Assembly (NCBI GenBank): GCA_030650415.1
Contig: JAUSEG010000017.1
Location: 16,885-80,884, forward strand
Direction: 5' to 3'
Source: a bacterium
GTDB lineage: Bacteria > Patescibacteriota > Patescibacteriia > Patescibacteriales > GWC2-42-12
Length of the DNA stretch: 64,000 bases
The position numbers and the translations under genes are program-made. This document shows positions 3,184 through 53,004 of this stretch, piece by piece. Position 1 is the stretch's first letter. The number at the start of each line of letters is the position of its first letter. A model generated the notes under the pieces. The model was not told the origin of the DNA. It searched no databases and was given only the letters and a program-made list of their open reading frames with translations.

Positions 3184-4797
3184 ATGGTGAGACAAAGTCA
3201 AATTTTTGCAAAGATAATAGTATTCTTTCTAATATTACTGCTGGCTCAAATGGCCGGTGGTTTTATTTACGCTTCTGAACCGGCGGCGCAAGATGAAAAT
3301 TCGTTTTTCATTAATATTAATAAGGCCACCGCCGATAAGGGCTATGCCATAAAAGCTTTGGCCGGTCAGTTTAGCCTTTCTTTACCCAAGGGAATTTTAA
3401 AAGACGCTACCGGAGTGGAAATAAAAAAAGTTAATGAAGATATGGATTTGCCTTGGCAGCTGGAAAAATTAAGCGAAATTTATCAGTATGAAATTATTAA
3501 TAAAACGGCTTATGACGGTAAAAAACCGCTAACGGTTGAGATTAAATATAATCAAGCGTCTTATTACTATAAGCAAGTTTATTTTTACGACAAAAATTAT
3601 TCTTCTTGGCGGCCGCTTTCCTGCAAGGAAATTTTTGACAAAAGTTCCGTTAGATGCGAAGTGCCGTTTAATTTCGCCCGATTGGCCGTCTTCGCCAATC
3701 CCAATGTCTTAGCCATCGGCAAAGCCAGCTGGTATAGCTACAAAAAAGGCAACTTTACAGCCTCGCCGGATTTTCCCAAAGGTTCAAAATTGCGTGTCTA
3801 TAATTTGGATAACGGTAAATTTGTAGATGTGGTAGTCAATGACTTCGGGCCGGAAAGAAAATTGCATCCTGATCGGGTGGTTGACTTGGAAAAAACCGCT
3901 TTTAGTAAAATTTCCAATATAAAACAGGGAACCATTAAAGTCAGAGTTGAACTCATTTCTCTTGGAGTTAAGTCCGAAAGATTATTTGGCATAAGCAATC
4001 AGGGAGCAAAAAACCAACCGGTGATAACGGCTAAGTCGGCTATTGTTATGGATGAACAGACCGGAGATATTCTATGGCAGAAGAACGCGACCAGCACTCT
4101 ACCTTTAGCCAGTCTTACAAAACTCGTTGCTATTAGAGCTTTTTTAGATACCAGGCCGAGCTTGAATAAAATAGTCGCTTACAGTATTAGAGATGAAGAA
4201 TATAATTATGAATATGTAAATAAATGGGAGTCGGCCAGGTTAAAATTAGCCGACGGCGATACTCTAACCATCGAAGATTTACTTTACGCGGCCTTAGTGG
4301 GTTCAGCCAATAACGCGGTTGAAACCCTAGTGCGCTCGAGCGGTTTAACCCGCAGTGAATTTATTAAGAATATGAATGATCTAGCGGCCGGTTGGGGCGC
4401 GTCAGCGACTCATTTTATCGAGCCGACCGGCTTGGCGCTGGAGAATGTGAGTTCGGCTTATGATTATGCTATAATAAGTAAGGAGGTTTATACTCATCCG
4501 ATTATTCAGAAGGCCAGCACCATGTATAAATATAAATTTACCACTCTGAACACTAATAAAGCCCATACCATAGTTAATACCGATAAACTTTTAGAAGTCA
4601 GCAGTTTAAACATCACCGGCTCTAAGACCGGCTACTTGGACGAAGCGCAATATTGCTTAATGGCCAGAGCTGCCAATAAGAAAGGCGGGCAAGTTATCGC
4701 CGTTATCATGGGAGCGGATAGCCGAGAGAAAAGCTTTGCCGAAACCGAAGAGCTTTTAAAGTATGGATTAAAAAATTGGACGCTGGTTATTAAATAA
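3184..4797 (+). CDS. Fusion protein: RlpA-like double-psi beta-barrel domain plus D-alanyl-D-alanine carboxypeptidase (peptidase S11, PBP5-like)
   Basis: N-terminal hydrophobic signal. ASWYSYKKGNFTASPDFPKGSKLRVYNLDNGKFVDVVVNDFGP is RlpA/DPBB-like. The C-terminal half has SLTK (SxxK), SANN (SxN) and KTGY (KTG). Confidence 0.8.
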   Translation: MVRQSQIFAKIIVFFLILLLAQMAGGFIYASEPAAQDENSFFININKATADKGYAIKALAGQFSLSLPKGILKDATGVEIKKVNEDMDLPWQLEKLSEIYQYEIINKTAYDGKKPLTVEIKYNQASYYYKQVYFYDKNYSSWRPLSCKEIFDKSSVRCEVPFNFARLAVFANPNVLAIGKASWYSYKKGNFTASPDFPKGSKLRVYNLDNGKFVDVVVNDFGPERKLHPDRVVDLEKTAFSKISNIKQGTIKVRVELISLGVKSERLFGISNQGAKNQPVITAKSAIVMDEQTGDILWQKNATSTLPLASLTKLVAIRAFLDTRPSLNKIVAYSIRDEEYNYEYVNKWESARLKLADGDTLTIEDLLYAALVGSANNAVETLVRSSGLTRSEFIKNMNDLAAGWGASATHFIEPTGLALENVSSAYDYAIISKEVYTHPIIQKASTMYKYKFTTLNTNKAHTIVNTDKLLEVSSLNITGSKTGYLDEAQYCLMARAANKKGGQVIAVIMGADSREKSFAETEELLKYGLKNWTLVIK

Positions 4798-8463: not shown

Positions 8464-8645
8464 GTCGTCGTTTATTGATTTAAACTTATCTTCAAGACAT
8501 AATTATTATAGATTAATAAGCCGGAAGTTACAATATATGGGCAAAATCAAAGAAAACATTTTCGAACTCCCAATAAATCGCTTACCTAACGAAAAAGCAG
8601 GCGTTTTATCACCTGCTCGTTCTGCATTGTTCGGGGACCAGGATT

Positions 8646-8798
8646 TTCACCCCGTCAAATAGTAAAGTTTTCTTCACATCGTTCGGGGACCAGGATTCGA
8701 ACCTGGATTAATGGCTTCAAAGGCCACTGTCTTACCATTGGACGATCCCCGAACGATATGAAGAAATTATATTAATAATTTTTATTTGACGGGGCAGG
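8646..8798 (-). mobile_element. Hairpin-bounded 153-nt element carrying a complete tRNA-Gln (family E, copy 1)
   Basis: Sense-strand termini are CCTGCCCCGTCAAATA ... TATTTGACGGGGTGAA (12-bp inverted repeat). The inner 13-bp stem TTCTTCATATCGT/ACGATGTGAAGAA flanks the tRNA. The termini match 22573..22676. Confidence 0.6.
8682..8752 (-). tRNA. tRNA-Gln (anticodon UUG)
   Basis: Acceptor TCGGGGA/TCCCCGA, anticodon arm GTGGC-CTTTGAA-GCCAT, T-arm CCAGG-TTCGAAT-CCTGG, 71 nt, discriminator A. Confidence 0.9.
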
Positions 8799-9104
8799 CC
8801 TGGATTAACGGCTTCAAAGGCCGCTGTCTTACCATTGGACGATCCCCGAATGTTGAGATGATTGTTAAATTATCTCTGGAAAACTAAGCAAAATCCCGAA
8901 AACTCGGGATATTGTTATCATAAAATATTATTTGATTTTTGTAAACCCCAGTTAAATATTTTTTAGCTATTATTAGCTTCGCCATAATAAAAGCGTATGT
9001 TTTGCTATCTGCTGTTGATATATTTATTTTTAACGGAGCGGGGTTGTTCTGGATTTTATTTTGAGCTATGATATAATATAAGATATAAAAAATAATTATA
9101 TTAT

Positions 9105-22331: not shown

Positions 22332-22361
22332 TTTGACATCCGACTAAGTGGACGAGTATAA
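22332..22361 (+). promoter_or_regulatory. Near-consensus sigma70 promoter
   Basis: TTGACA (22332..22337), 18-nt spacer, TATAAT (22356..22361), 33 nt upstream of the 22395 ATG. Confidence 0.6.
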
Positions 22362-22394
22362 TATAAACATAATAATTTATTTTCAATCATAAAT

Positions 22395-22589
22395 ATGGCA
22401 AATAATATGACAATTGATGAATTGGCCGGAATGATAAAAGGAGAATTTGATAATGTTGGTGGAAAATTTGATAAAGTTAACGGTCGTTTTGATAAAATTG
22501 AAAGTGAAATGGCAAAAGGCTTTAAAGAATTAAAGGATGATCATGAGAAGCTTGAATTAAAAGTATCCAATGCCTGCCCTGTTAGATAA
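22395..22589 (+). CDS. Small coiled-coil protein, interrupted near its 3' end by a 104-nt element
   Basis: 64-aa ORF. The last 4 codons plus stop (CPVR*) lie inside element 22573..22676. See 22677..22747 for the displaced remainder. Confidence 0.6.
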   Translation: MANNMTIDELAGMIKGEFDNVGGKFDKVNGRFDKIESEMAKGFKELKDDHEKLELKVSNACPVR

Positions 22590-22676
22590 GTTTGATTTAT
22601 TGGAAAAATAAATTATTTAAATATATCGCTGTGATTAATTTGTGAAATATAAAGTCAATTTATCTAACGGGGTGAA
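22573..22676 (+). mobile_element. Hairpin-bounded 104-nt element (family E, copy 2, no tRNA)
   Basis: Termini CCTGCCCTGTTAGATAA ... TTATCTAACGGGGTGAA match those of 8646..8798, with two compensatory arm changes. The inner ATATCG/TGTGA flanks are also shared. Confidence 0.6.
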
Positions 22677-22747
22677 CCTATCGCTTTGAGTTGGTTGAAT
22701 TGCAAAAACGAGTGGAACTTTTAGAAAAGAAGGTTTTAAAGAGTTAA
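22677..22747 (+). other. Displaced 3' coding segment of the 22395 gene
   Basis: Deleting exactly 22573..22676 joins ...KVSNA to YRFELVELQKRVELLEKKVLKS* in frame (23 stop-free codons in AT-rich DNA, same heptad-like character). Confidence 0.5.
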
Positions 22748-30758: not shown

Positions 30759-31910
30759 GTGGACAAGGCGGTTCTAAAAGCGATGTTACCGTATTTTTCC
30801 GATAAATACGGCAACGCTTCTTCGCTTCATGCTTTCGGCCAAATAGCCGCCAAGGCGGTTAATCAAGCGCGGGAGAATATCGCTAAATTATTAAATTGCG
30901 GGATCGAAGAAGTAATTTTTACTTCCGGCGCCACCGAAGCGGATAATTTGGCGGTTTTCGGCTTGGTCAACGCTTTAAGAAAAAATAACAATGATAAGCT
31001 TCATATTATAACTTCAGCGATCGAGCATCCGGCGGTGCTGGAACCGTTAAAAATATTAGCAGGTCAGGGAGTCGAAGTCACCTATTTGCCGGTTGGCAAG
31101 AGCGGCCTGGTTGATTTGGAAATTTTTAAAAAGTCCATCAAAGACAACACGGTTTTAGTTTCGATTATGTATGTTAACAGTGAAATCGGCATTATTGAGC
31201 CGATCAGGGAAATTGGTGAAGTCATTGAAAAAATTAATGCCGAGAGAGCAGGCCAAGGCGGTAAGAAAAGAATTTATTTTCATACTGATGCCGTTCAGGC
31301 CTTAAATTTTTTGGATTGCGACACCAAAAAACTTCATCTCGATCTTTTATCATTTTCCGGACATAAAATATATGGGCCTAAGGGAATAGGCGTTTTATTC
31401 GTTAAATCCGGCACACCGATTCAAGGTCTGCAATTGGGCGGCCACCACGAAAAAAATTTAAGAAGCGGCACCTTAAACGTTCCGGGCATCGTCGGCCTCG
31501 CTGAAGCCTTAAGAACTTGCTCACGGGACAGAGAAAAAAACAATAAGAAAATTTTAAAATTGAGAAATAACTTTGTCGCTGCGGTTAAAAAGCGAATAAA
31601 AAACGTGAGAGTAAATACCGATTTAAAAAAATCCACGCCGTCGCTGGCCAGTATTTCTTTTGTTGGCGCCGAGGGCGAATCGATCTTAATCGCTTTGGAT
31701 TTAAGCGGCGTGGCGGTTTCTACCGGCTCGGCTTGCGCTTCGGCGAGCCTAAAGGCCTCGCCGGTCTTACTCGCTATCGGTATAAAAGAAGAAACCTGCC
31801 ATAGCACCATAAGGTTCAGTTTCGGAAAAAATAATACTGAAGCTGAGGTTAAAAAAGTCTTAAAAATATTACCACCGATAATTGAGAGATTAAGGAAAAT
31901 GGCTCCCTAG
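30759..31910 (+). CDS. Second cysteine desulfurase (NifS-like); true start upstream and non-canonical
   Basis: The track starts at GTG 30759, but the conserved N-terminus IYLDHSATTP is encoded in frame at 30726..30758. That frame opens at 30705 and has no ATG/GTG/TTG; only ATT (30714) and ATA (30717) are available. Confidence 0.85.
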   Translation: MDKAVLKAMLPYFSDKYGNASSLHAFGQIAAKAVNQARENIAKLLNCGIEEVIFTSGATEADNLAVFGLVNALRKNNNDKLHIITSAIEHPAVLEPLKILAGQGVEVTYLPVGKSGLVDLEIFKKSIKDNTVLVSIMYVNSEIGIIEPIREIGEVIEKINAERAGQGGKKRIYFHTDAVQALNFLDCDTKKLHLDLLSFSGHKIYGPKGIGVLFVKSGTPIQGLQLGGHHEKNLRSGTLNVPGIVGLAEALRTCSRDREKNNKKILKLRNNFVAAVKKRIKNVRVNTDLKKSTPSLASISFVGAEGESILIALDLSGVAVSTGSACASASLKASPVLLAIGIKEETCHSTIRFSFGKNNTEAEVKKVLKILPPIIERLRKMAP

Positions 31911-31992
31911 CTTTTAATCAATTTGCAGTCAGTTTAATAAAAAACGCCTCCCTAGCTTTTAATCAATTTGCAGTCAGTTTAATAAAAAACGC
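31903..31992 (+). repeat. 45-bp tandem duplication spanning the nifS-like stop codon
   Basis: ctccctagcttttaatcaatttgcagtcagtttaataaaaaacgc occurs twice (31903..31947, 31948..31992). The third unit begins but runs into the terminator stem. Confidence 0.9.
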
Positions 31993-32024
31993 CTCCGTCA
32001 AAATTTGACGGAGGCGTTTTTTAT
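31984..32024. terminator. Bidirectional terminator hairpin
   Basis: aaaaaacgcctccgtcaaa-at-ttgacggaggcgtttttt is a perfect 13-bp stem with A/T runs on both sides, between convergent genes. Confidence 0.85.
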
Positions 32025-32907: not shown

Positions 32908-33471
32908 TTATAAGCTTGACAAATTAAGTTTGGCGTTAATTTCAAAGTCAATATTTTCTTTTTCCAGAATATTTTTAATCGGAAATTCAATATCTCTAAA
33001 ATAGTCGGCGTTCTCCATTTTTCCCTTAAAGTCCAGAAGACTGCTTCTAAGCTTAGCCTTGCCTTTGATTTTTATCGTTTGTGCCGCAGAATCAAGTTTA
33101 ATATAATAAAAATTAATATCAGGCGGCGTCATTTCGGCCAGATCTTTAATTAAGTTTGACCAGGGGATGAATTCGTTCTGAATTTTTACAATAAAATTTA
33201 ATTTATTGTTTATCTCTCGAACATTATTATTATAGCCCTGATTGGATTTTGTGACTAAGGTCGTCTGGCTGACGATTTCATTGAATTTTGACTGAAGGAT
33301 AACTCTTGCGACCAGAAGAACGATAGCAATGGCAATTATAATAATTATCAAAGTCAAATTAACGGTTTTTATAAAACTGTAAATATGGCGCAATTTGATT
33401 TCTTTTTTTTGTCCCGAAGAAATTAGGTTTAAAGTTAGCATAGTGGATGGCAATTTATCAATATTCGTCAA
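32908..33471 (-). CDS. pilN: PilN-like pilus assembly protein
   Basis: 187 aa. LNLISSGQKKEIKLRH then a TM helix is typical of the PilN N-terminus. It overlaps the pilM stop. Confidence 0.6.
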   Translation of the reverse strand: MTNIDKLPSTMLTLNLISSGQKKEIKLRHIYSFIKTVNLTLIIIIIAIAIVLLVARVILQSKFNEIVSQTTLVTKSNQGYNNNVREINNKLNFIVKIQNEFIPWSNLIKDLAEMTPPDINFYYIKLDSAAQTIKIKGKAKLRSSLLDFKGKMENADYFRDIEFPIKNILEKENIDFEINAKLNLSSL

Positions 33472-34639
33472 TGAAAATTCCTCTTAAAGCCAGCCCAATA
33501 GCGGTAGCATAAGCGGCGCTGGTGTTTTGTTTAATGGATAAACTTTTTTCTTCACACTTTGAATCGAGTTTAGGAGTTTTAATGTCGAGCACGTGTTTTT
33601 CTGTAAAGAATTTATTAAACCTGGCTTGGTCTTCGTTCAGGTTGGTTAAAGTGTCGGCTAGCCTTACCTCAACTGGCAATTCTTGGCCAATAATTTTTAC
33701 CAGATTGGTTATATTGGCGCCGCCGCCACTGAGTAAGATTTGATTTAACGCGCCGTGTTCGCAAAAGTAATTTTCATAATACTGAATGGCTTCTTTAATC
33801 TTTTCCACCAGATTTTTTACCGTATCGGCCAGGATTTCTTTAATTACCCCGTTAGCTTTAGTTTCATCCATGCCACAGATTATTTTAGCCTTTTCCGCCT
33901 GTTCTTTGGTCAGAGCCAGCGCCTTGGAAATTTTCGCAGTAACTTCTCCGCCGGAGATTGGCATGCTAACGGTAAAAAGAATGGTGTTATTGGAATAAAA
34001 AATCATGCAAGTATGATCGGCGCCAATATCAATCAAGCCGTAATTTATGCCGATTTCCGGTTTATTCTTAGTTCCGGAAATTAATGGTTTTAAATTGGGA
34101 GCCTCTTCTTTTAAGAGGCTCCGAGCGATAGCCGTCGGCTCAATTTCCAAGGCTACCGGGGATAGCTTCGCTTCATCAAGCATGGCCGTATATTGATCGA
34201 CTATTTCTTTGGGCGCGGCGCCGATTAAGATAAAATATTTTTCGGTTGTTTCTTTTATCACTTGCCAGTCGTAGTAAATCTCGCTTTTTGACAGCGGAAC
34301 ATGTTTTTCTATTTCACTGCCGATAATGTCGATTAAGGCATTAGGTGATTTTTGAACTTCAATTGATTTAATAAAAGTTTTTGATTCCGGCAAGCAGGCG
34401 ACCACTTCCTTGGAGCTGGTTTTACCGAAGGCGGGTGAGGAAACGATTTTTCTAATTGCCTTAATTAGTTCGGGTTTATTTATTATTTCGCCTTTATTAA
34501 TTGTATTTTTTGGCAAACTTAACTTTCCTAAGGCCTGGATGGTTATTTTATCCCTGACTTTGTTAAGTTGGACCAATTTTATGGATAAATCCGAAATATC
34601 TAAACCAATCGGGTAAGTTGAGTTATTAGTTAATATCAT
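33458..34639 (-). CDS. pilM: Type IV pilus assembly protein PilM (actin-like ATPase fold)
   Basis: The ATG at 34639 (MILTNNSTYPIGLDISDLSIKLVQL...). GLDIG-type phosphate motifs (IGLDISD, GLIDIGADHT, LLSGGGANI). Confidence 0.8.
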   Translation of the reverse strand: MILTNNSTYPIGLDISDLSIKLVQLNKVRDKITIQALGKLSLPKNTINKGEIINKPELIKAIRKIVSSPAFGKTSSKEVVACLPESKTFIKSIEVQKSPNALIDIIGSEIEKHVPLSKSEIYYDWQVIKETTEKYFILIGAAPKEIVDQYTAMLDEAKLSPVALEIEPTAIARSLLKEEAPNLKPLISGTKNKPEIGINYGLIDIGADHTCMIFYSNNTILFTVSMPISGGEVTAKISKALALTKEQAEKAKIICGMDETKANGVIKEILADTVKNLVEKIKEAIQYYENYFCEHGALNQILLSGGGANITNLVKIIGQELPVEVRLADTLTNLNEDQARFNKFFTEKHVLDIKTPKLDSKCEEKSLSIKQNTSAAYATAIGLALRGIFIDEY

Positions 34640-34668
34640 AGATATATTATACCATAAAAAACCGATAA

Positions 34669-35907
34669 TTAATATTCTTCCTCCCAATGTTCAACCGTCA
34701 TGACCGGGGAAATTGAGCTTACGCCCAGAGCCTCGTTGATTATACTGTTGTCGTAATAAATATTTATTGGCAGCCAAACGCTGGTGATGGTTAGCTTCCT
34801 GCCAATCAGGCCGCCGGTTATAGAATTAGTAAAACCCAGGGGCAGGCTTAAGAGATTAAATTGATCGTTGGCGTAAACTACGCCGGTAATATTGATGTTG
34901 CCGCTCCATAAATCAAAGTTGACCTTTCTTTTGGCGAAAATTCCCGATCGTTGCCCGGCTATTCTAGTAACAGTTAAGTGGCTGTTGCCGCAGCGTGATC
35001 CCCGGCAACGGCTAGAGGCAAGGTTAAAATCGCGGCCGGCGGCCAATAGTCCTTTAACGACTAAAGTTTGCGCTCCGTAAACATTTATATCGCCGTCAAC
35101 GTAAGTTATTGGCCCGTTTAAAGTTAGGTTTTGATTATTCTGCATTAGAGTGTCGAATTGAGCTTGCGTATAGACGACAGTGGCTCGATTTTTTAAAGAA
35201 TTGGCGTCGGTTGAATCGAAATCAATCGCCGGCATCTGAATAGGGGCTGCGGCCGGTTTATTGGGATCGTTAGCGGCATAGATTCTGCCGCCGACATTAA
35301 CGGTCGCGAGCCATGATTCAATGTATTGGTTAACGACGTTTAAATTTTCATCAACGTTAACGGTGCTCAAAAGCTTAATGTTATAAACATTGTTTGAGTG
35401 CGAGCCGCCATCATGAAAGTAAATATTGCTTAAAGCAATATCGACGTTGCCGTCGGCGTAAGAGGCGTTATTCCCTATGCCGGCTTGTCCCATAGCTCTG
35501 AAAACCGCGGTTTCGACTATTCTCTGGCTGGTAGCGCCATTATTTAATCCAATAGTGCCGGTGGAAATAATCGTGCCATGAGCCAGGCTGGTGTTGGTTA
35601 TAGTTACAGTGTATGAACCGTTGCCGGCGCCGAAGGGGTCGGTTCTTGAAAAAGTTATTGTCCAGCTCGGGTTAGTTTCAAAATTTTGTTTGTAGGCGGC
35701 GTCATTTTTTAATTTCCAAACCATCTCTTGGATGCCGGCTTCGGCCAAATAGTAAGTTTTTGCTCCCCAGGACTGGCTGATGGCGATTCGATTTTCTATT
35801 AAAGCGGCATCTAAAAGATAGACGGCTAAAAACATGATTGTCGTCATCAGTAAAATCGTCATGATTAACTCTATGCCTCGATGGTTTTTTATGATGGAAG
35901 TTTTCAT
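34669..35907 (-). CDS. Large pilus-cluster protein with pseudopilin-like N-terminal helix (PilX/minor-pilin-associated?)
   Basis: The ATG at 35907 (MKTSIIKNHRGIELIMTILLMTTIMFLAVYLL...). About 410 aa, Gly/Asn/Thr-rich and beta-rich. Confidence 0.4.
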   Translation of the reverse strand: MKTSIIKNHRGIELIMTILLMTTIMFLAVYLLDAALIENRIAISQSWGAKTYYLAEAGIQEMVWKLKNDAAYKQNFETNPSWTITFSRTDPFGAGNGSYTVTITNTSLAHGTIISTGTIGLNNGATSQRIVETAVFRAMGQAGIGNNASYADGNVDIALSNIYFHDGGSHSNNVYNIKLLSTVNVDENLNVVNQYIESWLATVNVGGRIYAANDPNKPAAAPIQMPAIDFDSTDANSLKNRATVVYTQAQFDTLMQNNQNLTLNGPITYVDGDINVYGAQTLVVKGLLAAGRDFNLASSRCRGSRCGNSHLTVTRIAGQRSGIFAKRKVNFDLWSGNINITGVVYANDQFNLLSLPLGFTNSITGGLIGRKLTITSVWLPINIYYDNSIINEALGVSSISPVMTVEHWEEEY

Positions 35908-36514: not shown

Positions 36515-36603
36515 TTTGCTTGCCCCGTTAAATTAATTATTTTCGGGGGAGGTTATTTATTGATAGGTATTTAATCGTTGTTATTTTTCGTCTATAGATT
36601 AGT

Positions 36604-37314
36604 TTATTTAACCGGGGTAAATTTAAAAGCTGATAAAGCCTGTTCGGCTTCCTTGGTGAATTCAGCCGACTCCTCGCTGTATTTTAAAATATAATTAAGA
36701 TTATTTTTTATTAATAAAATATAAATATTTTTTATTTTGGCCATAAAGTTATTTAAAGTTAACTTCGTTCCGGCAACCCCGGCCAGAACAATCGGCTCTT
36801 CGGTTAAAGAAACCAGTCCGGGATATTTTTTAGCCTCGGCTTTAGCCTGTTGAATTTCATTGTTGGTTTCGCCGGATATAACCTCAATAGTTATGGCGCC
36901 TTGCCCGTTTTTTGGCGGTACCGCGCCTAAGGAGATATTATTTTCCGCGCGAATTCTTATCGGCCAGTCCGGAGGGAAGTTAATTTCGTAAAAATAAGTA
37001 TAATTCTTATAATAGCCCGGCTTCGCATTAGGAATAGTTTGTTTTTCTACCGGTGGTGTAACCCTTTTTACTTCTTCGTTCGGCGCGGCTGTCGGATCGG
37101 TTTTTTTTGAAGCGGTTTGATTATTACTAACCGACGCCGTCTGATTTGAAGATCTGACGTCGGGGGTTTTATGAAGGTTAGCCGCTTTAGCTAAATCTTG
37201 CCTGACTTTATCATCTAAATATTCCGTGTAGCCTAAATAACCTAAAGCTATCAGGCCTAAAATTATCACTATATTTATAATTGAGATTCCGCCCCTGAGG
37301 TTTTTCATTACCAT
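36604..37314 (-). CDS. Hypothetical membrane-anchored protein in pilus cluster
   Basis: 236 aa with an N-terminal hydrophobic helix after RGG. No recognisable domain. Confidence 0.4.
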   Translation of the reverse strand: MVMKNLRGGISIINIVIILGLIALGYLGYTEYLDDKVRQDLAKAANLHKTPDVRSSNQTASVSNNQTASKKTDPTAAPNEEVKRVTPPVEKQTIPNAKPGYYKNYTYFYEINFPPDWPIRIRAENNISLGAVPPKNGQGAITIEVISGETNNEIQQAKAEAKKYPGLVSLTEEPIVLAGVAGTKLTLNNFMAKIKNIYILLIKNNLNYILKYSEESAEFTKEAEQALSAFKFTPVK

Positions 37315-37823
37315 TGGTTTATTAAAGTTGTCGTAACGTAAGTTTTTTCCGTCTTGGAAAAAGAATTAATATAGTAAACGGTAACAGTGATTTTTTTTAA
37401 ACCCAGATCAGCCGCGGAAATTCCTAAGTTGCCATCAACATATTGCGCCTGGGTTTGCCGCTGAAAATAATATAAATAGCTGGCCGGATCCAGGGATAAT
37501 TTATGTTTAACCTCAATCACGCCCGTTGCAATGTCGCCGTAACCCAAAGAATAAAGATGTTCGAGCTGGCTTTGCGCTAAGTATGAAGCCTTGGTGGAAT
37601 TTTCAGCGGTTTTATTAATCATTAGTCCGCGGGGGAATGAATAGGCTAAGCTGATAAAGACCATGGAAAAAATAAAGAAAGCCACCATGGTTTCAATCAG
37701 AGTAAACCCCGTTAGAGAACTTTTAATAGTTGACAGTATCTTTAATGACCGTCGATTTAAGTCGGTAGTATTCTCTAACGGGGTAAATCCTTTTTCTAAA
37801 TTTTGTTTATGGCAACTCAACAT
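37308..37823 (-). CDS. Pseudopilin (PilV-like) with prepilin-type motif
   Basis: SLTGFTLIETMVAFFIFSMVFISL. Unusually long (~45 aa) leader if the first ATG is used. Confidence 0.7.
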   Translation of the reverse strand: MLSCHKQNLEKGFTPLENTTDLNRRSLKILSTIKSSLTGFTLIETMVAFFIFSMVFISLAYSFPRGLMINKTAENSTKASYLAQSQLEHLYSLGYGDIATGVIEVKHKLSLDPASYLYYFQRQTQAQYVDGNLGISAADLGLKKITVTVYYINSFSKTEKTYVTTTLINQW

Positions 37824-51210: not shown

Positions 51211-53004
51211 ATGCCGGAAAAAAATTCAAGCCAAAAATTAAATAGGCAGCCGATTAATATGCGTCAGTTTTGGTCGAGGCTATGGCGGTTGATCTCGGCT
51301 TCGCAGCTGCAAATAAAGCATTTGTTTGTTTTGATATTGGCGGCTGAAAGTTTTCAGTTCGTCGGCCCCTATTTGCTTAAAAGAATTATTGACTTGGTGG
51401 CGGCTTTTAAAGTTGAAAATATCAAGAATATAATAATTTTAATTATTTTCATACTCTTAGTTGATTTAATTGCCAATTTAATAGATTATTTTAGCGATAA
51501 AAGAATTTATAAAATTACCATAGCGGCGGAAAAATATTTATCGATTAATGCTCAAAGAAAAATGGTTGATTTGGGCTTGGGCTATCACGAGAAAGAAAAT
51601 ACCGGCAATAAGATTTTTAAAATTCAGAGGGGTATCGATAAAATTATCGACTTAATGGAAAATTTTTTCTGGGAGGTGGGGCCGACGATTATCCAAACAA
51701 TTTTAACCGCTTTTATTTTATATATCGTGGATTGGCGCTTCGGTTTAATATTTACTTTATTTGTCCCAATTTTCGTGTATTTAACAGCTAAGTTAAATAA
51801 TGAAAGAGCTCCTTTAAGAATGCGCCGCCACGATATGTATGAAGAAGCGGCCGGTAAAATGGCTCAGGCCATAATTAACATCAATACCGTCAAATCATTT
51901 GTTCAGGAGGACCGAGAGGTCGGCGAGTTCAAAAAAATAAAGGATAATACCGAGAAAATCGCTTTGCTGGAATTTTTTAAGCTGTTGAATTTTAATTACG
52001 GAAGAACGGCGGTCATAACTGTCGGGCGGGTTTCAGTTATGTTATTTGGCGTTTATTTGGTTTGGATCGGTAATATTACTATCGGCAGTTTTGTTTTTAT
52101 CATAACCATCTCGGAAAAGGCCTTGATTTCTTTATTTAGAATCTCCCGGCTTTACGATAAGATTATGGATTCTAGCGAAGCGATTGATCGGCTGTATCAG
52201 CTGGAAAGCCAGAGCTTGGACATAGAAAATCCGGTTAACGGCCTGGCGGTTAAGGCTATCGCCGGTCAAATTGAGTTTAAGGATGTTAGCTTCGCCTACA
52301 AAGATAGCAGCCTCAAGGCTTTGGATAAGGTAAATTTTAAAATTAATTCGGGTTGCACTACGGCCTTAGTCGGTCCGTCCGGCGGAGGAAAAACTACCGT
52401 GGCGCGTTTAATCTATCGCCACTACGATCCGACCGGCGGACAAATTTTATTGGATAATCAGGATTTAAGAAACTATAACATCTATAATTTTCGCAAATTT
52501 TTAGCAATTGTGCCCCAAGAAGTGGAAATTTTTAACGAGAGCGTTAGAGATAACATTTCCTACGCCAGTCCGGCGGTAAGCATAAAAGCGGTAATCGCGG
52601 CCGCTAAGATTGCCAATGCCGAAGAATTTATTGATAGATTAAAAAGCGGTTATAAAACTTTAGTCGGCGAGCGCGGCATTAAACTTTCCGGCGGCCAGAG
52701 ACAGCGGCTAGGCATCGCCCGCGCCATCTTAGCCAATCCGCGAATTTTAATTTTTGACGAAGCCACCTCGAATCTTGATTCATACAGCGAAAAATTAATT
52801 CAGGAAGCTTTGGAAAGAATCAGTAAGGATCGAACGGTAGTTATTATCGCCCATCGGTTAAGCACGATTAGAAGGGCCGACAAAATTGTTGTTCTGGAAG
52901 ACGGCCGGGTGGCCGAGCAGGGAAGCCATCTGGAATTGGCCAAGATAGATGGCGGGTTGTACCGGGAATTACTAAAATTACAGCGCCTGGGAGATGTTGA
53001 TTAA
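51211..53004 (+). CDS. ABC exporter, fused permease/ATPase (MsbA/ABCB-like)
   Basis: Six-TM N-terminal domain. GPSGGGKTT, LSGGQRQRLGIARA, ILIFDEATS. Confidence 0.9.
   Translation: MPEKNSSQKLNRQPINMRQFWSRLWRLISASQLQIKHLFVLILAAESFQFVGPYLLKRIIDLVAAFKVENIKNIIILIIFILLVDLIANLIDYFSDKRIYKITIAAEKYLSINAQRKMVDLGLGYHEKENTGNKIFKIQRGIDKIIDLMENFFWEVGPTIIQTILTAFILYIVDWRFGLIFTLFVPIFVYLTAKLNNERAPLRMRRHDMYEEAAGKMAQAIININTVKSFVQEDREVGEFKKIKDNTEKIALLEFFKLLNFNYGRTAVITVGRVSVMLFGVYLVWIGNITIGSFVFIITISEKALISLFRISRLYDKIMDSSEAIDRLYQLESQSLDIENPVNGLAVKAIAGQIEFKDVSFAYKDSSLKALDKVNFKINSGCTTALVGPSGGGKTTVARLIYRHYDPTGGQILLDNQDLRNYNIYNFRKFLAIVPQEVEIFNESVRDNISYASPAVSIKAVIAAAKIANAEEFIDRLKSGYKTLVGERGIKLSGGQRQRLGIARAILANPRILIFDEATSNLDSYSEKLIQEALERISKDRTVVIIAHRLSTIRRADKIVVLEDGRVAEQGSHLELAKIDGGLYRELLKLQRLGDVD

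Follow-up and report, generated by a model that had tools for sequence, protein, structure and literature searches.

The stretch of DNA considered here (hereafter the window) comprises 64,000 nucleotides (nt) of contig JAUSEG010000017.1, from a bacterium of the Patescibacteriota, and contains a small coiled-coil gene that is interrupted by a 104-nt element with palindromic ends, referred to below as copy B. In the order of transcription, the locus consists of a promoter, the 5' part of the gene, copy B and a stranded 3' remnant (Table 1). The open reading frame (ORF) as it stands extends over 22395..22589 and encodes 64 aa, with the TAA at 22587..22589 in the left arm of the element as its stop; translation ends four codons into copy B because the element, being 104 nt long, is out of frame and carries this TAA in the frame of its host. 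The two arms, 13 nt each, are paired at 12 of 13 positions, plus one T.G pair, and as RNA the element folds at -30.6 kcal/mol (z = -3.8), with 0 of 200 dinucleotide shuffles as good. The insertion is also present in an independent Logan assembly (L004), and the 64-aa protein ending ..SNACPVR likewise recurs in an independent Logan assembly.

An earlier note on this DNA described copy B as a tRNA-less sibling of a tRNA-borne element at 8646..8798 on the minus strand (copy A), and proposed that either a small non-autonomous element has disrupted the gene or the element is removed at the RNA or DNA level. The sequence agrees with that description as regards the termini of both elements, the CCTG/TGAA flanks common to them, the two arm differences that are mirrored on the opposite arm, the third that gives a T.G pair, and the end of the host ORF (..SNACPVR*), followed by 23 stop-free codons to 22747 once 104 nt are deleted. 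The sibling relation stands for the termini and for the rare CCTG/TGAA flanks and falls for the interiors, since the inner ATATCG/TGTGA said to be shared is not borne out when the interior of A (minus its tRNA) is compared with that of B (z = 1.45, p ~0.1); the kinship of A and B thus appears to be one of ends and flanks. Copies A and B do agree in their orientation with respect to the host transcript, but a further copy, C, lies inverted in its operon.

When the reconstructed 82-aa protein is used as the query, uninterrupted homologues of 72-88 aa are retrieved that cover it entirely at 56-80% identity, and the expected uninterrupted orthologues (77-86 aa) carry the 23 downstream codons that had been predicted. 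Fourteen orthologues end ..SNVAYRFELVELQKRVELLEKKVLKS, and the stranded codons are therefore the real C-terminus of the protein. No orthologue ends naturally at ..SNACPVR, the only such database protein being the 64-aa call of this metagenome-assembled genome (MAG) itself, and what the truncation removes is the most conserved segment, in which Y61-E64 is nearly invariant. In relatives, the syntenic order is ctp, pyrG and then the orthologue of the interrupted gene, with paralogues adjacent to it, and the empty site in three of them (L001, L002 and L003) is TCCAATG-TGG-CCTACCGC, as against TCCAATG-(104 nt)-CCTATCGC in the window. Judged from these alignments, the insertion of copy B is real, but three bases (TGG) have been replaced. 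The exact restoration of the gene proposed in the earlier note consequently fails: the empty sites carry TGG where the 104 nt sit, and deletion of the latter yields SN-AYRF, from which a Val that is invariant in 14 homologues is missing. The gene hit by copy B is truncated and probably dead, its 23 conserved C-terminal residues being no longer made. In L001, the same promoter is separated from the ATG of the orthologue by another hairpin of the kind described below, and the window is empty at that place. A different family of G+C-rich repeats (CCCCTCC / GGGAGGG-type palindromes) fills intergenic regions of L001 (700..860 and 4070..4200) and is absent from the corresponding regions of the window.

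Copy A splits a resident tRNA-Gln(UUG) in its T loop, the TTCG of which it replaces, and itself encloses a complete tRNA gene of the same kind that is flanked by its own 12-bp inverted repeat (TTCTTCATATCG / CGATGTGAAGAA). The outer and inner genes differ in one compensated anticodon-stem pair (C-G outer, T-A inner). At the syntenic spot, Candidatus Falkowbacteria GW2011_GWA2_41_14 (L137) and two other relatives (L138 and L139) have one intact tRNA-Gln(UUG), whose anticodon stem is that of the outer, split copy of the window, and it follows that copy A entered the resident gene at its T loop. ARAGORN recovers a tRNA after removal of the hairpin and one flank. The inner gene is probably the functional one, because the outer T loop cannot be rebuilt from the sequence present, and the whole looks like an arrangement of the type "break the gene, bring a replacement". 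Among 140 loci, no other hairpin carries or splits a tRNA. T loops were also considered as a general target and rejected: a metagenome scan for duplication-flanked hairpins in the context GTTCR..TTCRANNC gave 11 loci, none of them in an intact tRNA gene and one in a tRNA-like 3' fragment. In the latter (L131, 150..300, minus strand), a family hairpin flanked by duplicated TTCA occupies the T loop of a tRNA 3' fragment whose anticodon loop is CTGAAAA and which has no 5' half; it may be an integration-site remnant.

Table 1. Features of the window, and family hairpins in related or listed loci, discussed in the text
Feature	Position	Strand	Description and basis
Promoter of the interrupted gene	22333..22362	+	σ70-type TTGACA-18-TATAAT; 12/12 consensus matches
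Coiled-coil gene, 5' part	22395..22572	+	59 codons and first base of the next; ORF list; aligns with 77-86 aa orthologues
Copy B	22573..22676	+	CCTG 22573..22576; left arm CCCTGTTAGATAA 22577..22589; 70-nt A+T-rich interior; right arm TTATCTAACGGGG 22660..22672; TGAA 22673..22676; sequence, inverted repeat
Stranded 3' remnant	22677..22747	+	Last two bases of the split Ala codon, 22 codons, stop; matches orthologue C-terminus YRFELVELQKRVELLEKKVLKS
Resident tRNA-Gln(UUG), interrupted in T loop (by copy A)	8630..8850	-	5' part 8799..8850, 3' part 8630..8645
Copy A	8646..8798	-	CCTG-CCCCGTCAAATAA ... TATTTGACGGGG-TGAA; encloses complete tRNA-Gln(UUG) 8681..8752
Copy C	36519..36621	+	CTTG...TAAA on + strand; between 236-aa gene and next pilin gene of minus-strand pilus operon
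Copy D	37703..37787	+	77-bp hairpin, TAAA/TAAA duplication; in PilV-like prepilin (ORF 37308..37823, minus)
Short family hairpins in 5' leaders of L001	956..997 and 4238..4290 of L001		One just upstream of ctp, the other between promoter and ATG of the orthologue of copy B's host gene
In-frame hairpins in Pfam-identified hosts	L006, L012, L017, L031, L064, L084, L085		

A relaxed scan of the window, allowing at most two mismatches to the 10-nt foot of the arms (CCCCGTTAGA/TCTAACGGGG) and requiring at least 11 of 13 arm pairs, returns four copies, namely A, B, C and D, versus none in ten shuffled windows. The upstream gene takes its final codons and its stop from copy C, and at the site of this copy in L124 and L125 the flanking genes overlap by ATGA without any element; read in the direction of the operon, its flanks are TTTA...CAAG, of which TTTA corresponds to the target, and there is no duplication. 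Copy D lies exactly between the G and the FTLIE of the prepilin cleavage motif, with TTTA on either side on the coding strand. Counted with one duplicate it measures 81 nt and keeps the reading frame open without a stop, so that the protein sequence becomes ..EKG-FTPLENTTDLNRRSLKILSTIKSSLTG-FTLIETMVA... Eight 144-aa orthologues lack the insert, two proteins (P0039 and P0112) have a different one at the same spot, and closely related species differ in the occupancy of this site. Comparison with the empty sites of L123 and L125 (GG-TTTA-CTTTGAT) shows the duplication directly, the occupied form being GGA-TTTA-H-TTTA-CTCTG, where H stands for the hairpin; in L124 the site is taken by an independent hairpin with other arms and another interior. 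A candidate fifth copy (33847..34161), within the long minus-strand ORF 33458..34687 of the pilus cluster, was rejected, as it has poor arms and is missed by a stricter scan.

The same ends are found far beyond this genome. A scan of one genome per species for CCCCGTYARA, 10-70 nt and TYTRACGGGGTRAA gave at least 118 loci, against an estimated ~30 chance matches for the whole collection. The hits are spread over at least eight phyla; among the matches listed are Omnitrophota, Planctomycetota (Pirellulales, Phycisphaerae and Planctomycetia), several lineages of Patescibacteria, Desulfobacterota, "Deltaproteobacteria", Nitrospirota, Bacteroidota (Bacteroidales), Cloacimonadota, Gammaproteobacteria, KSB1, WOR-3 and one archaeal MAG of the Methanosarcinales. 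All listed loci are hairpins, and many contain several. The plasmid and phage collections yielded no real match to the family, and viral contigs only 3 hits in 2.9 million. [quoted passage not shown]

In 112 distinct copies, the 10-nt foot is fixed and positions 11-13 vary, with three pair types at each of them. These three positions are Watson-Crick paired in 92, 85 and 62% of the copies, versus 37, 59 and 31% in permuted controls, and from position 14 on pairing is at background level; the end of the family is a sharply bounded 13-bp inverted repeat. Thus, the covariation noticed earlier between copies A and B continues to hold when more copies are aligned. As an observation, the preservation of the terminal stem stands (positions 11-13 matched in 62-92% of the copies), but it does not suffice as sole proof of an RNA structure, because both ends of any inverted-repeat transposon match each other. 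The interiors are unrelated between copies and ~4-120 nt long; whole hairpins measure 29-145 bp and contain no ORF. The smallest listed hairpins, foot to foot, have 29-32 bp, such as CCCCGTTAGAGAAC-TTCG-GTTCTCTAACGGGG-TAAA, and only the end-encoded peptides FTPLE..LTG or VNPVR..SNGV recur. Some hairpins of the metagenome loci L129 and L133-L136, and of L021 and L067, are nested in the loop of another hairpin of the family, and composite forms with a spare right arm joined by CAAG-CGGGGC occur in the same loci.

The flanks of the hairpins bear on how they arrived. Identical TTYA/TRAA 4-mers flank 64 of 142 hairpins (TTTA 28, TAAA 19, TTCA 9 and TGAA 8) in listed loci that were chosen by a pattern requiring GGGGTRAA on one side, with other flank classes consequently under-sampled. 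Rare non-canonical flanks (CGAG, TATG, TAGA and TTAA) are matched on both sides as well, and beyond TTYA the only target preference is for C or T at the next base. Empty orthologous sites are available for copies A, B, C and D and for one copy of L001, and together with the target duplications these five sites constitute the signature of transposition with a 4-bp staggered cut. With their CCTG...TGAA flanks, copies A and B fall into a class of lesser frequency, CYTG-H-TRAA, which is equivalent to TTYA-H-CARG and is met again in other phyla (L016, L028, L067, L070, L073, L101 and L113). Besides clean duplications, the 142 hairpins (L005-L122) thus show two recurrent flank classes, this TTYA-H-CARG class and a TTYA-H-TRAA class, the latter mostly with the mismatched pair TTCA..TAAA (24/33). 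Several models were tried for all flank classes at once, including duplication, insertion 3' of the tetranucleotide, donor-derived overhangs and quasi-palindrome correction, and none of them fits all.

Copies within genes were examined by removing the hairpin and one duplicate from duplication-flanked copies and asking whether a long ORF is restored across the junction. The listed loci contain 18 such genic copies, and in 15 of them the insert is a multiple of 3 and stop-free (binomial p ~2e-5 by our own arithmetic); among non-genic duplication-flanked copies, 18 of 51 are a multiple of 3. The occupied ORFs read through the hairpin as FTPLE...LTG or (V/I)NPVR...SNGV. Hosts identified by Pfam comprise IF-2, FolD, aspartate-semialdehyde dehydrogenase (Asd), DNA polymerase III delta', an Exo_endo_phos nuclease, a radical-SAM/NirDL fusion and Memo-AMMECR1, and in the majority of these the insert lies between matched domains. 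Such a bias towards in-frame, stop-free inserts implies that the copies stay in the mRNA and are translated, since removal beforehand would make length modulo 3 and stops irrelevant; to judge from their reading frames, the genic copies of the family are translated rather than removed. Copy D fits this in-frame persistence, whereas copy B, with 104 nt and an in-frame TAA, does not.

One class of sites deserves separate mention. The motif G-F-[TS]-[LM]-[ILV]-E occurs 14 times in the 118 listed loci, and in 8 of the 14 a hairpin sits exactly between G and F, in contrast to TTYA sites overall, of which ~0.6% of 22,884 are occupied. Hairpins at G|FTLIE are known from the window (37703..37787) and from L014, L047, L082, L091, L111 (two copies), L121 and L124; without exception they keep the frame and contain no stop, and 11-31 residues (FTPLE...LTG) are thereby added to the leader. 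The hairpins at the eight occupied sites of the 118 loci are likewise all in frame. PilB/PilT-type ATPase ORFs are present in 18 of the 118 loci, and PilC in 7. It is possible that the hot spot is simply a harmless place, where the insert only makes longer a leader peptide that is later removed by cleavage; alternatively, it may reflect a preference of the enzyme, as GG-TTYA-C.C...T.GAR resembles the element junction GGGG-TTYA-CCCCGTTAGAR.

Considering this evidence, 22573..22676 is very probably a copy of a MITE-like, palindromic, non-coding mobile family that behaves like the Rickettsia palindromic elements (RPEs), and that was inserted here as DNA with truncation of the gene. Copy B entered the coding sequence of a coiled-coil protein of 83 aa, with codons 59 and 61 on either side of it, and replaced three bases. 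Its movement would depend on a transposase acting in trans, and the match between the arms would be a requirement of that enzyme, or of a hairpin intermediate in single-stranded form, not a function in RNA; the small size of the gene and its paralogous neighbours may explain why the insertion has been tolerated. Of the two alternatives raised at the outset, disruption by a small non-autonomous element is favoured by the empty orthologous sites, the multi-copy family, the target duplications and copies C and D. Removal, on the other hand, has no support in these sequences: it would not recreate the orthologous sequence, the orientation is inconstant, Rfam gives no intron or ribozyme, and the in-frame bias of the genic copies is the strongest argument against removal at either level.

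Several points nevertheless weigh against insertion of a mobile element as the explanation. Copy B has no target duplication, and its flanks CCTG and TGAA are both absent from the empty site; the flanks of copy A are likewise absent from theirs, those of copy C half so, and simple cut-and-paste does not fit. The flank statistics carry the sampling bias mentioned above, and the interiors share no sequence within one genome, which is unusual for a recently amplified MITE. The case against RNA-level removal is itself an indirect one, drawn from sequence. Finally, neither an autonomous element nor a transposase with these ends was found in the window, in 122 genome loci or in the plasmid and phage collections. 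Long-range pairs of ends in the loci, considered as possible autonomous elements, were all combinations of separate hairpins, and the ORF families that recur near listed hairpins are PilB/PilT, PilC, GGDEF, aminotransferase and LeuRS, with no transposases. Within the window, islands of 45-51% G+C in a 40% genome (~18.0-19.0, 23.2-25.5 and 58.0-59.0 kb) contain ORFs with a DUF2934 tail, a weak match to LuxR/σ70 region 4, and MshEN plus a deoxyribosyltransferase-like domain; no transposase domain was found in these islands.

If the element were instead an intervening sequence removed from RNA, the mRNA and the outer tRNA-Gln would both be repaired, with the stem juxtaposing the exon ends for cleavage and ligation. 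Strong pairing of the termini as RNA (z = -3.8), a 104-nt deletion that is in frame and restores 22 of 23 conserved C-terminal residues, the sense orientation of copies A and B and the perfect promoter upstream would all suit such an intron, yet the Val codon would be lost, the outer T loop would become 3 nt or TGAAAAT, copy C is oppositely oriented, and the preserved, stop-free frame of 15 of the 18 genic copies would be needless if they were spliced. Copy A moreover brings its own tRNA-Gln, as befits a dead outer gene in need of replacement, none of the 11 hairpins in T-loop context lies in an intact tRNA gene, and neither an Rfam intron or ribozyme nor, by inspection, bulge-helix-bulge geometry is present; splicing is accordingly a scarcely credible account. 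Excision from DNA at some frequency, either seamless (piggyBac-like) or site-specific, would turn the gene into a reversible on/off switch. Clean 4-bp duplications would permit seamless excision, the ends resemble those of piggyBac/IS1380 in a 13-bp repeat as well as in a CCC start and a 4-bp A+T-rich duplication (PMC10813416, PMC7351741), and related species differ in the occupancy of one pilin site. However, copy B is without a duplication and has taken the place of 3 nt, so that its excision could not give back the intact gene; among the database proteins there is no uninterrupted allele from this species, the nearest uninterrupted homologues being 74-80% identical, and no transposase was found in the listed loci or in the G+C islands of the window. 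A reversible switch is, in our opinion, improbable.

The hairpins might also be functional signals (protein-binding, uptake-type, terminator or regulator) that have accumulated or been copied by recombination, possibly in connection with type IV pili. A 10-nt foot that is identical across phyla, while the interiors are free, would agree with this, as would the enrichment of pilus loci (PilB/PilT in 18/118 listed loci and 8/14 G-FTLIE sites occupied), the failure to find a transposase, and the agreement of 7 of 10 positions of the foot with GCCGTCTGAA, the uptake sequence of Neisseria. What makes such signals an unlikely explanation is that orthologous sites either have or lack the complete hairpin with its interior, together with a 4-bp target duplication, that rare non-TTYA duplications are matched on both sides too, that copies lie inside unrelated housekeeping genes at domain junctions, and that copy B destroys a gene. 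Going further than insertion as such, the family could constitute an undescribed, still active, cross-phylum class of minimal transposons, with 13-bp ends, a 4-bp TTYA duplication, a minimum of ~30 bp, an enzyme possibly related to piggyBac/IS1380 that recognises the hairpin or the matched ends, a built-in preference for G|FTLIE and a capacity for cargo, of which copy A ("replace what you break") would be an instance; we regard this wider proposal as speculative and rather doubtful.

Comparison with known systems helps to place the family. RPEs are short non-coding palindromic repeats that insert in protein genes, persist in frame and add a peptide to housekeeping proteins (PMC10969869). The present family resembles them in the preserved frame of 15 of its 18 genic copies, whose hosts include IF-2, FolD and Asd. 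RPEs differ in being ~100-150 bp long, in having conserved interiors that encode a conserved peptide and in being restricted to Rickettsia, whereas the family described here goes down to 29-35 bp, conserves only its 13-bp ends, has a 4-bp target duplication and occurs in many phyla; no sequence similarity to RPEs was found, and as the interiors are unrelated between copies, it does not belong to the RPEs proper. Bacterial MITEs, such as Correia/NEMIS, ERIC, RUP and the Coxiella QMITEs, have inverted repeats, a short duplication, many copies and no transposase of their own; related genomes differ in which sites they occupy, and fusions in frame are occasionally seen (PMC10969869, PMC5896051). 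The family has inverted repeats, multiple copies and presence/absence at orthologous sites in common with them. A duplication is seen in the family (64 of 142 hairpins, and copy D against its empty sites) but not in copy B, where CCTG/TGAA replace TGG, and no autonomous partner was found in the genome loci or in the plasmid and phage collections. Typical MITEs have similar interiors per genome and narrow hosts, while here the interiors are unrelated even within the window and the foot is identical across phyla.

Other palindromic repeats are less close. The repetitive extragenic palindromes (REPs) carry GTAG or CGTC tags and are extragenic (PMC3733652). Similarities to REP/REPIN systems, which are associated with RAYT (Y1 HUH) enzymes, lie in small hairpin repeats with a conserved tetranucleotide by the stem, and in REPIN structure being kept by matched changes. 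REP/REPIN identity was nonetheless rejected on account of the wrong tags (TTYA/TRAA or CYTG), the frequent intragenic location and the duplicated target; no RAYT gene was seen, nor any recurrent Y1-type ORF family in the listed loci. With piggyBac/IS1380, the family has in common its ends and a 4-bp A+T-rich duplication, and it differs from them in a target that is TTYA, not TTAA, and in that no such transposase was found near any copy. The 13-bp repeat of piggyBac is CCCTAGAAAGATA, which resembles CCCCGTTAGAAAT. piggyBac elements duplicate 4 A+T-rich bp (TTAA, with variants TAAA and TCAA) and have short repeats starting with CCC, and IS1380 is their prokaryotic outgroup (PMC10813416). A kinship of the ends with piggyBac/IS1380 may be suspected from this analogy and is best regarded as a lead. 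As for palindrome-associated elements of the IS200/IS605 type, hairpin-dependent recognition would apply, and TTYA-H-CARG copies such as copy C look inserted 3' of the tetranucleotide without duplication. IS200/IS605 elements have two different subterminal hairpins and are not known to duplicate their target, whereas here one hairpin is formed from both ends and 64 of 142 hairpins have identical flanking 4-mers.

Introns and related RNA elements were likewise rejected. At gathering thresholds, Rfam gives only three tRNAs in the window, and neither a group I/II intron nor a self-cleaving ribozyme; some family members total only 29-35 nt. In an archaeal bulge-helix-bulge intron, a 4-bp helix stands between two bulges of 3 nt where exon and intron meet. 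The junctions here lie in an unpaired internal loop of 4 x 4 (copy B) or 4 x 7 (copy A) beside a 13-bp helix, and the flanking exon bases of copy B are unpaired by inspection. An attC site of an integron was excluded as well, as the order is reversed (GTTAGAT...ATCTAAC on both strands versus RYYYAAC...GTTRRRY) and no integrase or cassette context was seen. By its sequence features, the family thus appears to be of the MITE-like/RPE-like kind, and not a REP, an attC site or a known intron.

A further hairpin of the window, at 31989..32017, had been described as resembling two abutted termini of the element. Lying between convergent ORFs, it is a 13-bp stem preceded by an A run and followed by a T run; it differs from the foot of the family at 3 of 10 positions, has no family flanks and fails the family scan, and the description is not confirmed. 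The 8-mer CCGTCAAA/TTTGACGG common to this hairpin and the family is also present at 51887 and 28334, and an unrelated hairpin with a T run stands at the equivalent place in L124; the resemblance is treated as chance. A simple terminator scan did not list this hairpin, probably because its loop has only 2 nt. A 45-nt unit (AAAACGCCTCCCTAGCTTTTAATCAATTTGCAGTCAGTTTAATAA), repeated 2.2 times in tandem at 31896..31996, runs into it.

The suspected intron-like element becomes an ordinary gene disruption, and the 64-aa ORF, as a truncated gene, should be annotated so. Questions are thereby raised as to the enzyme that moves a 30-bp hairpin with a cross-phylum foot, the occupancy of the pilin sites, and the origin of the same-kind tRNA cargo of copy A. 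Short insertions that keep the frame arise widely from this family, which adds 11-28 extra residues to IF-2, FolD, Asd and DNA polymerase III delta' and also lengthens prepilin leaders; in uncultured phyla, among them Patescibacteria, Omnitrophota and Planctomycetota, it splits genes as well. Its 13-bp ends let annotators and protein modellers flag the inserted segments.

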